This document shows positions 13,507-52,443 of a DNA stretch of 64,000 nt, one piece after another. Location: NCBI RefSeq assembly GCF_058153355.1, contig NZ_CM177019.1. One strand, written 5' to 3'. Both the position numbers and the translations under genes were made by a program. Position 1 is the first letter of the stretch. Each line of letters opens with the position of its first letter. Under the pieces are notes generated by a model that was given only the letters and a program-made list of their open reading frames with translations, was not told where the DNA came from and did not search any database.

Positions 13507-14748
13507 ATGAAATGGTTTAACACCTTAAGTCACAACCGTTGGCTGGAACAGGAAACCGATCGCATCTTTGATTTTGGTAAAAATTCCGTAGTACCGACTG
13601 GCTTTGGCTGGTTAGGCAATAAAGGGCAAATCAAAGAAGAGATGGGCACCCATCTGTGGATCACCGCCCGTATGTTGCACGTGTATTCCGTTGCTGCGGC
13701 GATGGGTCGACCTGGCGCTTACTCGTTGGTTGATCATGGTATCAAAGCCATGAACGGCGCACTGCGCGATAAAAAATATGGCGGCTGGTATGCCTGTGTC
13801 AATGACGAGGGCGTGGTGGATGCCTCCAAACAGGGCTATCAACATTTCTTTGCCCTGCTGGGTGCCGCCAGTGCCGTCACAACGGGTCACCCGGAAGCGC
13901 GTAAGCTGCTCGATTACACCATTGAAATTATCGAGAAATACTTCTGGAGCGAAGAAGAGCAGATGTGCCTGGAATCCTGGGACGAAGCCTTCAGCAAAAC
14001 CGAAGAGTACCGCGGCGGCAATGCCAATATGCACGCGGTGGAAGCTTTCTTGATTGTTTATGACGTAACGCATGACAAAAAATGGCTGGATCGCGCGATT
14101 CGCGTGGCTTCCGTCATTATCCACGACGTCGCCAGAAATAATCATTATCGCGTTAACGAGCACTTCGATACCCAGTGGAATCCGCTGCCGGATTACAACA
14201 AAGATAACCCGGCGCACCGCTTCCGCGCATTCGGAGGCACGCCGGGCCACTGGATCGAATGGGGCCGTTTAATGCTGCATATCCACGCTGCCCTGGAAGC
14301 CCGTTGCGAACAGCCTCCGGCCTGGTTGCTAGAAGATGCCAAAGGTCTGTTCAACGCTACCGTGCGCGATGCCTGGGCGCCCGATGGTGCCGACGGGATT
14401 GTTTATACCGTTGACTGGGAAGGCAAACCGGTGGTCCGCGAACGTGTGCGTTGGCCTATCGTCGAAGCGATGGGTACGGCCTACGCGCTCTACACCGTCA
14501 CTGGCGATCGCCAGTACGAAACCTGGTATCAGACATGGTGGGACTACTGCATTAAGTACCTGATGGACTACGAAAACGGTTCCTGGTGGCAGGAGCTGGA
14601 TGCGGACAACAAGGTCACCACCAAAGTCTGGGACGGTAAACAGGATATTTACCACCTGCTGCATTGCCTGGTGATCCCGCGTATCCCGTTAGCACCAGGC
14701 CTGGCACCGGCTGTTGCCGCAGGCCTGCTGGACGTTAACGCGAAATAA
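13507..14748 (+). CDS. yihS: Sulfoquinovose isomerase (AGE / N-acyl-glucosamine 2-epimerase fold)
   Basis: 413 aa; synteny with yihT/yihU. Intact, ending 38 bp before the Mu right end. Confidence 0.9.
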
Positions 14749-14781
14749 CTGAGCTGAAATAACGGCATATCAGGCTACATG

Positions 14782-14786
14782 CCGGG
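14782..14786. repeat. Target-site duplication CCGGG (right-end flank of Mu)
   Basis: Identical 5-mer occurs immediately outside both Mu termini (14782..14786 and 51507..51511); fits the Mu target preference N-Y-G/C-R-N. Confidence 0.9.
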
Positions 14787-14901
14787 TGAAGCGGCGCACG
14801 AAAAACGCGAAAGCGTTTCACGATAAATGCGAAAACTTTAGCTTTCGCGCTTCAAATGAAACAGCAGTATTAATTACTGCTTTTTATTCATTGCATGGGG
14901 A

Positions 14902-15627
14902 TCACTTAGGGTATGGCTGAACCCTGAATAGTTTGGTATTTAGCCGCTTCCTTGCTCGCTTGTTCAGGAATCTGATATAGCGATACTGATTAAATTTGTG
15001 CACTACGGCACGCTCTTTATTAGCCCGTAAATACACGCCTCGTTGTCCACCTCGCTTAATCGCGTTCATCGTTATCTCGTGATACCACTCACCATCCAGC
15101 TCGTAGAACGTACTTTCATGACTGCCAATAAAATCAAAATTCGACGCCTGATACACAACGCCTGCGCGTCCGCAGCGTTCGTCAGCAAAGGACTGAACCC
15201 ACTCCACTGACGGATACAGTAATCTGATAACTTTCAGCGCGTAGCTGATGGCCCGTGATTCAGAGTTGCGGGGCATGTCGTCGTGTAGCCACATGCGGTT
15301 CAACTCCATATAGCCCCGGTTATCCGTTTCAAGCACGACACGACGACCTGAGTTGGGGTTAAGGGCATATCCCCACTGGAGAACGCCAACCAGATCGCGC
15401 CCGCTGAATACTCCCAGGTGGAGGTAAGAGTTATTCACAAAACGGCGGGAATAGTGCTTTGTCTGAATAATTGTGCGGGCCAGCCAGCAGGATATGGTTT
15501 CAACGCGCAGCTCCTTTGAACCATAGCCAACAATCTGGCCTTCATACTCAATAACGCACGGTTTCGTCAGAATGCGTGATTTTTTCTCTTTTCCCACAAT
15601 GTTTCTCCGTGGGATGCTCGCAGGCAT
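14902..15627 (-). CDS. mom: Mu Mom DNA-modification protein (anti-restriction)
   Basis: Last gene before the Mu right end; 5' end overlaps com, the characteristic com-mom arrangement. True start may be internal to the 241-aa ORF. Confidence 0.8.
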
Positions 15628-35484: not shown

Positions 35485-36967
35485 GGGTCAGCATGTCGAT
35501 AAGTTCTGCATCATCCATCTGCGGATATAATGAAGCAGCTTTGTTCATGGCGGCTTCCGGGCCATCTTTCAGCACAGAAAAAATGACGGGTTTCAGCAGG
35601 GGATCAACCGAACGCTGCCAGTCTTCCGGTGAGACGCCCATCCGGTCGATATCATCCTCCTGCGGGATATCTTCAGCGGATAATGCGGCCTCTTTCTGCG
35701 GACCGTTATCCGGGACAACCGGTTGAGCAGTAAACACGGCTTCATCACCGACCGGCTGTGGAATATGAAGTTTTTCCTGTATCCAGGAGACCGGAATACG
35801 CATTCCCGCCGCCAGTTTCGGAATGGCGTCAGACAGTGCCGTAATATCACCCGCTTCACTGGTATCAAACACAATGCCCGGCAGGCGGTTAATATCAATG
35901 GTGCTGTCACTGTTCAGTGCCAGCAGGGGATAAATCAGGTCACGGTTAATACTGCGGGCAAGCTGGCCCACATCCGCGTTACGGATTTCCCGGCGAACCT
36001 CATCATGCACTTCACCCAGCGACCGTGCACCTTTATCGCCAGCCTCTGTGGTCAGGGTGCCGCCCAGAATGGCTTTTGAAATCGCTTTTTCTGCCCAGCC
36101 AATCATCGCCATAAAGGGGTCTGACTGACCATCTGCGGCGCTCTGAAAATCCAGCGTCATCCCCATCGGAATAATGCCGCCGGCACGTCGCCCGATATCC
36201 ATCACGGCCTGCATCAGCGTGGCTTTCTCGCGGTTCGTTGAGCCGGTCGGATATTTACCGACGCGCATGGGGAGTCCGTAAATTTCCAGAAACTCTGCAA
36301 AATCACGCACGGAATAGTTTTTAAAAATAAAAGGCCAGATAAGCGTGCGCACAAGGCCATTGGTGCCGACATACCCGGTGCGGGATTTGGCCCGGTGCAT
36401 AAACCAGCCGAACGGTTGCAGCTCCAGCCCGTGATAAGACGCATCACGCAGGCGTAATTCGTTCAGATTGTCGGGGTTCGCACAGAACAGCGCCGGATCG
36501 CGATGATGCAGCGCCACCGGCACGCGCATTTTGCCCAGCCAGCCCCATTCAATCTCCTGCATGGAATAACCCTTGAGAATGGCATCACCGGCATCAAACA
36601 GGGCATCTTCAAACCACGCCGCATCATGCAGATATTCATTCAGCATGTCGGCGTCTTTTTTCTCCTGTGCGCTGGCATCACGTGCCGGAGCGATGCGCCA
36701 TTCCAGCGCCTGAATGGCAAGGCGGCGCTTGCTCAGTTCGGAAAAAAGGTGGGTGTCCTTTTCTTCCATATCAAAGGCCAGGTCAGCCTGTGCGGTCAGA
36801 TCACCGCGTTCGGCATCACGCAGCATCTGCGCGGCCCGGTTCGGCGTCACACCACTGGAAGGATGCTCCTGCGTACGCTTCATGACCATTGCCAGCTCAT
36901 CGCTGCGGGTCTGCATTTCATCGTCAAAATCAAACGGCTGCCCGGAAATATCCAGAATACGGCCCAT
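35429..36967 (-). CDS. H: Portal protein
   Basis: 512 aa immediately after the large terminase. Confidence 0.8.
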   Translation of the reverse strand: MGRILDISGQPFDFDDEMQTRSDELAMVMKRTQEHPSSGVTPNRAAQMLRDAERGDLTAQADLAFDMEEKDTHLFSELSKRRLAIQALEWRIAPARDASAQEKKDADMLNEYLHDAAWFEDALFDAGDAILKGYSMQEIEWGWLGKMRVPVALHHRDPALFCANPDNLNELRLRDASYHGLELQPFGWFMHRAKSRTGYVGTNGLVRTLIWPFIFKNYSVRDFAEFLEIYGLPMRVGKYPTGSTNREKATLMQAVMDIGRRAGGIIPMGMTLDFQSAADGQSDPFMAMIGWAEKAISKAILGGTLTTEAGDKGARSLGEVHDEVRREIRNADVGQLARSINRDLIYPLLALNSDSTIDINRLPGIVFDTSEAGDITALSDAIPKLAAGMRIPVSWIQEKLHIPQPVGDEAVFTAQPVVPDNGPQKEAALSAEDIPQEDDIDRMGVSPEDWQRSVDPLLKPVIFSVLKDGPEAAMNKAASLYPQMDDAELIDMLTRAIFVADIWGRLDAAADH

Positions 36968-50577: not shown

Positions 50578-51168
50578 TTGAAAAGTAACTTTATAGAAAA
50601 AGACGATACTGAAAAGTCAATTTGGTGTTCGCCGCAAGAAATTATGGCTGCTGATGGTATGCCTGGATCTGTTGCTGGTGTTCACTATCGAGCAAATGTT
50701 CAAGGCTGGACGAAGCGAAAAAAGGAAGGTGTCAAGGGGGGGAAAGCTGTTGAATACGATGTGATGTCTATGCCCACCAAAGAACGAGAGCAAGTTATTG
50801 CGCACTTGGGGTTATCCACACCGGATACTGGTGTTCAAGCCAATGAGAAACAGGATTCTTCGGAACTGATAAACAAATTAACCACAACCTTAATCAATAT
50901 GATTGAAGAGCTGGAACCAGATGAAGCACGCAAGGCACTGAAACTTTTAAGTAAAGGGGGGTTGTTGGCGTTAATGCCTCTTGTATTTAATGAACAGAAA
51001 CTTTACAGCTTTATAGGATTTTCACAGCAAAGTATTCAGACGTTGATGATGTTAGATGCATTACCTGAAGAAAAACGCAAAGAGATTTTGTCAAAGTATG
51101 GGATTCATGAACAGGAAAGTGTTGTAGTACCTTCACAGGAACCACAGGAGGTAAAAAAAGCCGTATAA
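50578..51168 (+). CDS. c: Mu repressor c
   Basis: 196 aa, MKSNFIEKDDTEKSIWCSPQEI...; only Mu gene transcribed away from the early operon; TTG start with upstream AAGGGG. Confidence 0.85.
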   Translation: MKSNFIEKDDTEKSIWCSPQEIMAADGMPGSVAGVHYRANVQGWTKRKKEGVKGGKAVEYDVMSMPTKEREQVIAHLGLSTPDTGVQANEKQDSSELINKLTTTLINMIEELEPDEARKALKLLSKGGLLALMPLVFNEQKLYSFIGFSQQSIQTLMMLDALPEEKRKEILSKYGIHEQESVVVPSQEPQEVKKAV

Positions 51169-51236
51169 CAACCATGAACCAGCTAAAACATACTTCACCT
51201 CACATAATCACACATGTAACATACCTAAACGGCATA

Positions 51237-51506
51237 AGCTGATTTGTGATATGAGTCATTTGGTGACAGCCTGGTTGTTATCGGTTTTGAACGTTTTTTG
51301 AAGCTGTTATTGAAATGATTTGCAGTGTTTTTGTTTTTCGTATTTTGAATGAAACAAAAGCAATTTTTTACTATCTTTCGCGTTTCATTGATTAACGACT
51401 AAAATTTGCGCTACAGGCTTGCAAGCCCCACCAAATCTAATCCCATCAGATCCCGAATAATCCAATGTCCTCCCGGTTTTTTTCGTACTTCAAGTGAATC
51501 AATACA
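51237..51506. other. Mu left-end terminal region (attL; MuA end-binding sites)
   Basis: Reverse complement of the Mu left-end sequence TGTATTGATTCACTTGAAGTACGAAAAAAACCGGGAGGACATTGGATTATTCGGGATCTGATGGGATTAGATTTGGTGGGGCTTGCAAGCC... as I recall it. Confidence 0.8.
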
Positions 51507-51511
51507 CCGGG
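51507..51511. repeat. Target-site duplication CCGGG (left-end flank of Mu)
   Basis: Identical to 14782..14786. Confidence 0.9.
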
Positions 51512-51540
51512 TATGTCGTTATTCAATAAAGGTGCCTCGT

Positions 51541-52443
51541 ATGCAAATCACCAACATGCATTGCAGTGGACAAACCGTTTCACTTGCCGCGGGGGATTAT
51601 CACGCGACTATCGTGACGGTTGGTGCTGGTCTGGCTGAATTAACTTTTCAGGGTTGTCATTTAGTCATCCCGCACAAACCCGAAGAGATGCCGCTGGCGC
51701 ATCTGGGTAAAGTGCTTATTCCGTGGCCGAACCGGATCGCCAACGGCTGTTACCGCTATCAGGGACAGGAATATCAGTTACCCATTAATGAACATAGTTC
51801 AAAAGCCGCTATTCACGGGCTGCTTGCCTGGCGAGACTGGCAAATTAGCGAATTAACCGCCACCAGCGTTACCCTGACAGCTTTTCTACCGCCCAGTTAC
51901 GGCTATCCGTTTATGCTGGCTTCGCAGGTTGTTTATTCGCTCAATGCTCGCACGGGCCTTTCCGTTGAGATCGCAAGCCAGAATATTGGTACTGTGACCG
52001 CACCTTATGGTGTGGGTATTCATCCTTATTTAACCTGCAACTTAACATCTGTTGATGACTATCTTTTCCAGCTTCCGGCAGAACAGGTTTATGCCGTCGA
52101 TGAGCACGCAAATCCGACAACGCTTCACCACGTTGATGAGCTGAATTTAAATTTCACGCGGGCGACAAAAATAGCCGCGACAAAAATAGACCATACCTTT
52201 AAAACCGCTAATGATCTGTGGGAAATGACCATTACCCATCCACAGCAGGCGCTGTCGGTGAGTCTTTGTTCCGATCAACCCTGGGTGCAGGTTTATAGCG
52301 GCGAAAAATTACAGCGTCAGGGACTGGCAGTTGAACCTATGAGTTGCCCGCCTAACGCCTTTAATTCAGGTATCGACTTATTATTACTGGAACCAGGAAA
52401 AACGCACCGCCTGTTTTTTAATATTCACGGGCAGCACAATTAA
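51541..52443 (+). CDS. yihR: Aldose 1-epimerase-family protein (sulfoquinovose mutarotase)
   Basis: Start MQITNMH... with RBS AAAGG; the longer 345-aa ORF (from 51406) begins inside Mu left-end DNA and is an artefact. Synteny between yihS and yihQ. Confidence 0.85.
   Translation: MQITNMHCSGQTVSLAAGDYHATIVTVGAGLAELTFQGCHLVIPHKPEEMPLAHLGKVLIPWPNRIANGCYRYQGQEYQLPINEHSSKAAIHGLLAWRDWQISELTATSVTLTAFLPPSYGYPFMLASQVVYSLNARTGLSVEIASQNIGTVTAPYGVGIHPYLTCNLTSVDDYLFQLPAEQVYAVDEHANPTTLHHVDELNLNFTRATKIAATKIDHTFKTANDLWEMTITHPQQALSVSLCSDQPWVQVYSGEKLQRQGLAVEPMSCPPNAFNSGIDLLLLEPGKTHRLFFNIHGQHN

Follow-up and report, generated by a model that had tools for sequence, protein, structure and literature searches.

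Insertion sequences and transposons may be insulated from outside transcription by terminators or similar devices close to their termini. Phage Mu itself also has terminators of the lys and P transcripts. The annotation of the Mu genome AF083977 gives terminators predicted by TransTermHP elsewhere in the genome, among them those at 9179–9200 after mor and at 10383–10406 after C, and none after mom. The paper on Shigella phage SfMu reports six predicted terminators, the positions of which are given only in a figure. In the literature searched, no mapping of mom 3′-ends or of transcriptional read-through at attR was found. Here, we analysed the right end of a Mu-family prophage lying in a 64-kb stretch of DNA (64,000 nucleotides, referred to as the window), for which the original prediction had proposed a hairpin and T-tract oriented to stop host read-through. 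Scoring of this copy and comparison with its relatives lead us to favour, with a probability of roughly 0.55, an intrinsic-type terminator at the mom/attR boundary, which would be basically two-way in the family and inward-biased in this copy.

Results

The right end of the prophage faces transcription from yihS

Using BLAST and end inspection, the window was found to contain a complete prophage of the Mu family, 36,720 bp long (14787–51506) and inserted between yihS and yihR. Its right terminus, TGAAGCGGCGCACG... at 14787, corresponds to the last base of Mu (36717) in the BLAST alignment, and its left terminus, ...CAATACA, is located at 51506. The nearest relative by BLAST is Shigella phage SfMu, with 99.1% identity over the mom region, and reference Mu is 98.6% identical. 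The features of the right end and its host flank are as follows.

13507–14748, plus strand: host sugar isomerase gene, named yihS in the original prediction (D-mannose-isomerase-like, E = 1e-150, below the family cutoff).
14782–14786, no strand: CCGGG, 5-bp target-site duplication flanking both prophage ends, second copy at 51507–51511.
14787–14835, plus strand: Mu right terminus TGAAGCGG... with the MuA sites R1 (core 14797–14813) and R2 (core 14819–14835), from the alignment to Mu base 36717.
14842–14863, minus strand: MuA-binding site R3, inverted, with the 17-mer core CTTTCGCGCTTCAAATG at 14842–14858, from the match to the consensus.
14902–15627, minus strand: mom, the last prophage gene (open reading frame; annotated as Mom in Mu and SfMu, 98.6–99.1% DNA identity).

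The cores of R1–R3 were placed by eye using YMyNwRAARYRCGAAAR, the consensus given in the D108 record; in the longer, 22-bp form of the MuA consensus, R3 extends to 14863 and abuts the stem described below. The yihS gene is transcribed toward the Mu right end, with its stop 38 bp short of the terminus, and the neighbours, an aldolase and an aldose-1-epimerase (PRK15172, E = 1e-185, start ~51541), fit yihT and yihR. Because yihS lies on the plus strand upstream of the right end, host transcription leaving yihS enters the prophage via this end, as the original prediction had assumed, and here mom, com and gin are all encoded on the minus strand. This exact yihS–Mu junction was absent from 5,426 complete E. 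coli genomes. A host hairpin, CGGCATATCAGGCTACATGCCG, was also observed at 14763–14784, past the end of yihS and ahead of the Mu insertion site, with CCGGG overlapping its 3′ arm; carrying no plus-strand T tract, it is unlikely to act as a stop for yihS transcription ahead of Mu.

A stem-loop followed by a T tract lies between R3 and the mom stop codon

The hairpin and T-tract that had been proposed between the Mu right terminus and the mom stop were found at 14863–14889, and the sequence initially given for them, gcagtattaattactgc followed by tttttatt, corresponds to 14864–14888. The element and its two tails are composed as follows.

14863–14881, RNA of either strand: stem-loop with the stem AGCAGTA (14863–14869)/TACTGCT (14875–14881) and the loop TTAAT (14870–14874), from sequence and fold.
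14882–14889, plus strand: T tract TTTTATTC right after the stem (TTTTTATT when the closing A–T pair is counted as tail), tail score 5.2.
14853–14862, minus strand: mom-sense tail GTTTCATTTG, a weak U-tract, tail score 3.0–3.6.

The stem-loop consists of a perfect 7-bp stem with three G–C pairs and a 5-nt loop, and forms a perfect 19-bp palindrome 77–95 bp inside the right terminus (77–103 bp with the T tract included). Its stem starts 5 nt beyond the 17-mer core of R3 and, in the mom sense, it is situated 20 nt beyond the mom stop codon (TGA, 14904–14902). On the plus strand, the sequence 3′ of the stem is TTTTATTCAT (14882–14891), and the T tract is the U-tract for transcription arriving from yihS. 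On the mom-sense side, the first four bases of the tail lie between the R3 core and the stem and its distal part falls within R3, so that this tail is constrained by R3. A plus-strand frame of 44 codons is open at 14786–14920, from the Mu terminus across the hairpin and past the mom stop; it is not a gene.

The 7-bp stem alone folds with −8.4 kcal/mol and the hairpin ranges from −6.6 to −8.4 kcal/mol, which is weak; in the 41-nt context, the fold energies were −11.5 kcal/mol on the plus strand and −9.6 kcal/mol on the minus strand (z = −3.9 and −3.5, respectively), and none of 200 shuffles was as stable. On the plus strand, the stem has the properties of an intrinsic terminator stem (~5–14 bp, G+C-containing, short loop) at the weak end of the range, and it is followed by a U-tract with the tail TTTT(T)ATTCAT. 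A discriminant d, which combines hairpin energy and T-tail, was re-implemented after a published rule, its constants and absolute values being approximate, and was scanned over both strands of the whole window, where 54 sites had d > 0. The plus-strand site scored d = +15.0 and ranked 14th among all window candidates of both strands, and when the 130-nt right end was dinucleotide-shuffled 250 times, this score was never reached on either strand, in agreement with the earlier view that the plus strand resembles an intrinsic terminator. The mom-sense site scored d = −18.7 and ranked 308th, lacking an adequate U-tract in this haplotype; it falls short of the rule because of its tail in or next to R3, and the minus-strand T-tract had correctly been called the weaker of the two.

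Across the whole window, d ≥ 15 was reached at 13–14 real sites and at 0 and 3 sites in two shuffles, and from these two shuffles the false-positive rate at d = 15 was estimated as roughly 10–20%. A crude consensus scan by itself was not significant, with 12 terminator-like sites in 6 kb vs. 6.9 ± 3.0 in shuffled sequence, and no family match was found in Rfam (best E = 6.6–9.6 at 10–14 bits vs. gathering scores of 43–65). The top-ranked site of the window (41956, minus strand), with a hairpin of −8.3 kcal/mol, corresponds to the ~9.2-kb Mu terminator annotated in AF083977; therefore, the scorer recovers the predicted terminators of Mu itself, and small stems are normal for the phage. At the prophage left end (50700–51560), no terminator-like site was found in either direction (best d = −6); repressor-gene transcripts running toward attL and yihR are left with no predicted intrinsic stop.

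The scan also returned a second hairpin, which is embedded in attR itself.

14801–14849, minus strand: attR-embedded hairpin, R3 paired with R1/R2 (14849–14806), then TTTTT (14805–14801); ΔG −16.3 kcal/mol, d = +4.7, rank 36.

This hairpin is followed by UUUUUCGUG, 13–18 nt ahead of the Mu terminus, and is the sole positive-scoring outward-facing site from gin to the Mu end. It arises incidentally from the inverted arrangement of the MuA sites and could act as an outward terminator; with its U5 run, it is in this copy a better outward candidate than the stem-loop at 14863–14881.

Pairing and T run are kept in related right ends while the sequence changes

Right ends were gathered from records of phages, from complete E. 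coli genomes and from contigs of viral and metagenomic origin, and were grouped by the sequence lying between R3 and the mom stop. A gapped pattern scan of the viral contigs gave mostly chance matches, and a stricter pattern used on the metagenome contigs gave 11 true loci. The haplotypes and their terminator scores on the two strands (d inward/d mom sense) are listed below.

Haplotype A: the perfect stem of the window; the commonest, in SfMu, E24377A and at least 16 loci; +15/−19.
Haplotype A variants: one stem mismatch; 8 loci, namely TACCGCT (6), L012 and L007; −12/−23 for TACCGCT.
Reference Mu type: AGATGTA, with two central pairs broken; reference Mu, E. coli W, S17-1 and one metagenome contig; −54/−64.
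Haplotype B: ACAGCGG-CATTAA/CATTGA-CCGCTGT followed by T7–9; a lineage ~88% identical over the right end; +37/+16.
Haplotype C: CAGCGGC-ATTG-GCCGCTG followed by C and T6; loci L058 and L078; +21/+21.

The mismatches in haplotype A affect the two RNAs differently: the TACCGCT variant has A·C in the plus-strand RNA and G·U in the mom-sense RNA, and the L012 variant has G·U in the plus-strand RNA and C·A in the mom-sense RNA. Haplotypes B and C differ from A at 6–7 of ~20 positions, and their stems form at the same location with the register shifted; they score positive both ways, with +21 to +38 inward and +12 to +32 in the mom sense. Because A and B/C pair in different registers and share no single consensus structure, a substitution simulation was used in place of a covariation count. 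Random substitution at the observed density kept the original stability in 1.3% of trials and reached the stability of B in 0.2–0.3%. In an alignment of 11 haplotypes, the T-run columns were invariant and the remaining spacer toward the mom stop was variable, and in haplotype B the T run was lengthened to T7–9. Since pairing and T run are conserved and the sequence is not, the comparison points to a role at the RNA level, and it favours a real RNA stem-loop of the intrinsic-terminator type.

Right ends with another hairpin or none were also found. Two loci of a more distant lineage whose Mom is 85–89% identical, L061 and L063, carry an unrelated GC-rich hairpin at the same place with T6 on the mom-sense side, and their mom-sense scores were d = +13 and +36, respectively. 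The hairpin is absent in D108-type phages (D108, PhiR68_1, Yersinia YpM_23 and Mu_3F6), which have an extra gene after mom with its stop 15 bp from R3, and from the end type with the terminal repeat "TTTGATAC", in which the mom stop overlaps the innermost repeat. The mom 3′-end of D108, TTATATGATACTAATCAGAACTGCTTTTTGGG (L002 540–600, between gp56 and mom), resembles the innermost repeat of this "TTTGATAC" type, and may be a fossil right end to which gp56 and a Mu-type attR were added later. The hairpin is intact in most natural relatives, and reference Mu is atypical at this position; the stem-loop lacks an annotation mainly because the reference genome has the broken version.

The hairpin and T run accompany mom beside different terminal repeats

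At three loci with alternative ends (L036, L038 and L045), the B/C hairpin and T run lie directly inside repeats beginning TAAAGCGCG(C/G)AAAATTATTCAAGATA..., with d of +21 to +38 inward and +28 to +32 in the mom sense. As hairpin and T run are kept beside another repeat family, the module is tied to mom rather than to the MuA sites. Near-identical mom genes were observed with three terminal-repeat families, the Mu-type TGAAGCGG..., TAAAGCGCG.AAAATTATTCAAGATA... and TAAAGCGCGCAAAATCATTTGATACC... (the loci compared were L036, L038 and L045, and L025, L041, L051, L053, L054 and L055), and mom and its 3′ module are therefore exchanged between Mu-like phages of differing transposase and end specificity. 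Homology to Mu begins precisely where the hairpin has its outer boundary. In E. coli 2014C-3075 (L018 701–850), a right end of the Mu type, in which the hairpin is intact and only the last ~12 codons of mom are left, runs directly into TAAAGCGCGCAAAAAC..., where another Mu-like element ends, and this locus looks like one Mu-like phage inserted in the mom gene of another.

The stem-loop is dispensable for Mu

Engineered 50-bp Mu ends, which consist of R1–R2, transpose without the stem-loop region. Given these ends, a reference Mu without an intact stem and an annotation with no terminator after mom, the stem-loop is clearly dispensable. Mud-lac operon fusions, in which lac is driven by transcription coming in through the Mu right end, were considered as an argument against an inward terminator and were set aside, since the fusion end in E. 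coli BW2952 lacks the hairpin region. This right end (NC_012759.1 4180256–4180360; L066 601–705) is a perfect palindrome of R1–R2 (62 bp) and inverted R2–R1 (42 bp), followed by trpB, in which R3 and the hairpin region are absent and an inverted R2 takes the place of R3. Protein-fusion vectors were likewise rejected as evidence, being uninformative because they would carry the broken hairpin of reference Mu in a translated context. The GATC at 14900–14903 ends exactly 117 bp from the Mu terminus, which fits the "117-bp S end" of Mu-lac protein-fusion vectors, and among plasmids no construct with a 117-bp Mu S end was found. Exact Mu R1–R2 ends of 50–51 bp were observed at the extremities of plasmid assemblies from Streptomyces, Borrelia and Acinetobacter (H103–H128), and an exact Mu R1–R2 end was also present in the Autographiviridae record of Proteus phage PM1 (L023 130–179); such ends in plasmid and phage records are most likely adapter remnants of MuA-transposome sequencing libraries and not biology.

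Discussion

Throughout the family, the element has a common layout in the 20–40-nt spacer between the mom stop and R3, with the stem-loop flanked by an A-rich run toward the outside and by the T run toward the inside. This A-run/hairpin/T-run symmetry and the two-way scores in most lineages suggest a basically bidirectional element, of which only the inward, plus-strand reading has a canonical U-tract in the present haplotype. RNA polymerase coming from yihS would cross R1–R3, transcribe the hairpin, pause on UUUUAUU and release the transcript, and release at this U-tract would prevent read-through from the host gene from entering mom, com, gin and the late genes in antisense. A plausible benefit of such an inward stop is that mom and the late genes would be spared antisense transcripts and head-on collisions caused by host read-through. 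In the outward direction, the mom transcript would receive a 3′ stem-loop with a poor U-tract (GUUUCAUUUG) limited by R3, and mom termination would probably be inefficient. What the analysis shows is the anatomy of the sequence, the stability of the fold, the score against shuffles and the rest of the window, and the maintenance of the hairpin among relatives; termination itself, its efficiency and its benefit are inferred from these.

The orientation against host read-through that was first proposed holds for this copy as a predicted inward bias and is too narrow for the family, in which most other haplotypes score both ways. For the family as a whole, it agrees with a stem-loop and plus-strand T run that are maintained through sequence change, but L063 has its strong T run on the mom-sense side. 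The element is broken in the reference phage and absent from the D108-type and another end type, so Mu does not require it. Against the favoured terminator reading speak, besides these losses, the weakness of the hairpin, the 8 haplotype A loci with a stem mismatch, the left end, which has no counterpart, the annotation of AF083977 with no terminator after mom, and a location inside R1–R3 that leaves the transposase sites unprotected.

The stem-loop may instead be primarily a 3′-end element of the mom transcript, namely a terminator and/or an exonuclease-protecting stem-loop, for which the plus-strand T run would be merely the upstream A-tract and a block to host transcription would be incidental; we regard this as possible though doubtful. 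Its location 20 nt after the mom stop is typical of a gene terminator, and it travels with mom across end families. The mom-sense scores of B and C are positive, and L063 and L061 have T6 on the mom-sense side (d of +36 and +13). However, the mom-sense site of the present haplotype fails the rule (d = −19, rank 308), the invariant T run lies on the opposite strand and is extended to T7–9 in B, and reference Mu makes Mom without the hairpin. The mismatch variants divide, since TACCGCT at its 6 loci keeps G–U pairing only in the mom-sense RNA, whereas L012 pairs only in the plus-strand RNA.

We hold it to be rather unlikely that the stem-loop is a "boundary module" under selection, accompanying mom and shielding both the transposition end and the prophage interior from transcription in either direction, with a bias flipping between lineages. 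If the boundary-module reading were true, laboratory reference Mu would be a natural loss-of-hairpin variant, and the classic work on mom expression, right-end function and effects on flanking genes would have been done without the hairpin.

That the element has no function, being a neutral palindrome of the AT-rich untranslated spacer which is terminator-like by accident, we consider quite unlikely. Terminator-like patterns are frequent in the crude scan, no other part of the right end varies as much within haplotype A as the stem, which is broken in a fully viable reference Mu, D108-type and TTTGATAC-type ends do without it, and so, as general knowledge has it, do the transposing R1–R2 ends. 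Against such an accident stand the hairpin potential retained through 6–7 substitutions in B and C, with a simulated probability of 0.2–1.3%, the failure of all 250 local shuffles to reach the observed score, and the invariance of the T run. A DNA-level element, in the form of a protein-binding palindrome or cruciform beside R3 that tunes transpososome assembly or end usage, would suit a perfect 19-bp palindrome starting 5 nt past the 17-mer core of R3 and abutting the 22-bp form of the site, but it is very improbable, and a MuA-binding site was rejected, as A, B and C differ at 6–7 of 20 positions while R3 is conserved, the palindrome persists beside unrelated terminal repeats, it is missing from D108 despite Mu-type R1–R3, and the conserved features, pairing and T run, point to an RNA-level role.

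If the intrinsic-type terminator at the mom/attR boundary is active, it would determine the depth to which host transcription enters a Mu-family prophage from the right and, in the two-way lineages, would limit the run-out of mom and late transcription into the neighbouring host genes at each insertion. It would then matter for polarity and activation in genes next to inserted Mu, and for how Mu-like prophages are annotated. As a routine, predicted regulatory feature, it leaves present views of Mu biology as they are; mildly notable are that its stem has turned over in a compensatory manner, that it is linked to mom across end families and that it has been lost in laboratory Mu.

Compared with known systems, the element resembles intrinsic terminators in E. 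coli and its phages, among them the bidirectional kind that separates convergent transcription units: a stem-loop is followed by a U-tract and preceded by a run rich in A, and it is positioned at the end of a gene, mom, that faces the convergent yihS. It differs from them in that its stem is short and AT-rich (three G–C pairs, about −8 kcal/mol), only one direction passes the rule in this copy, and its activity is a prediction. With the Mu terminators of AF083977, it has in common short palindromes, T runs and a location at operon boundaries; the equivalents of those terminators in the window (41956/41970 and 41121/41138) are top-scoring and palindromic, and hence readable on both strands, whereas the present stem-loop is not annotated and has two stem-breaking substitutions in the reference sequence. 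As in the end insulation of insertion sequences and transposons, a stop signal lies within ~100 bp of the terminus and faces host transcription. In contrast to that insulation, the stem-loop lies inside the transposase sites R1–R3, which are therefore not protected from incoming transcription, so that it would protect the interior; only the right end has one, and incoming transcripts would be antisense to the phage genes, making the benefit less obvious than in those elements.
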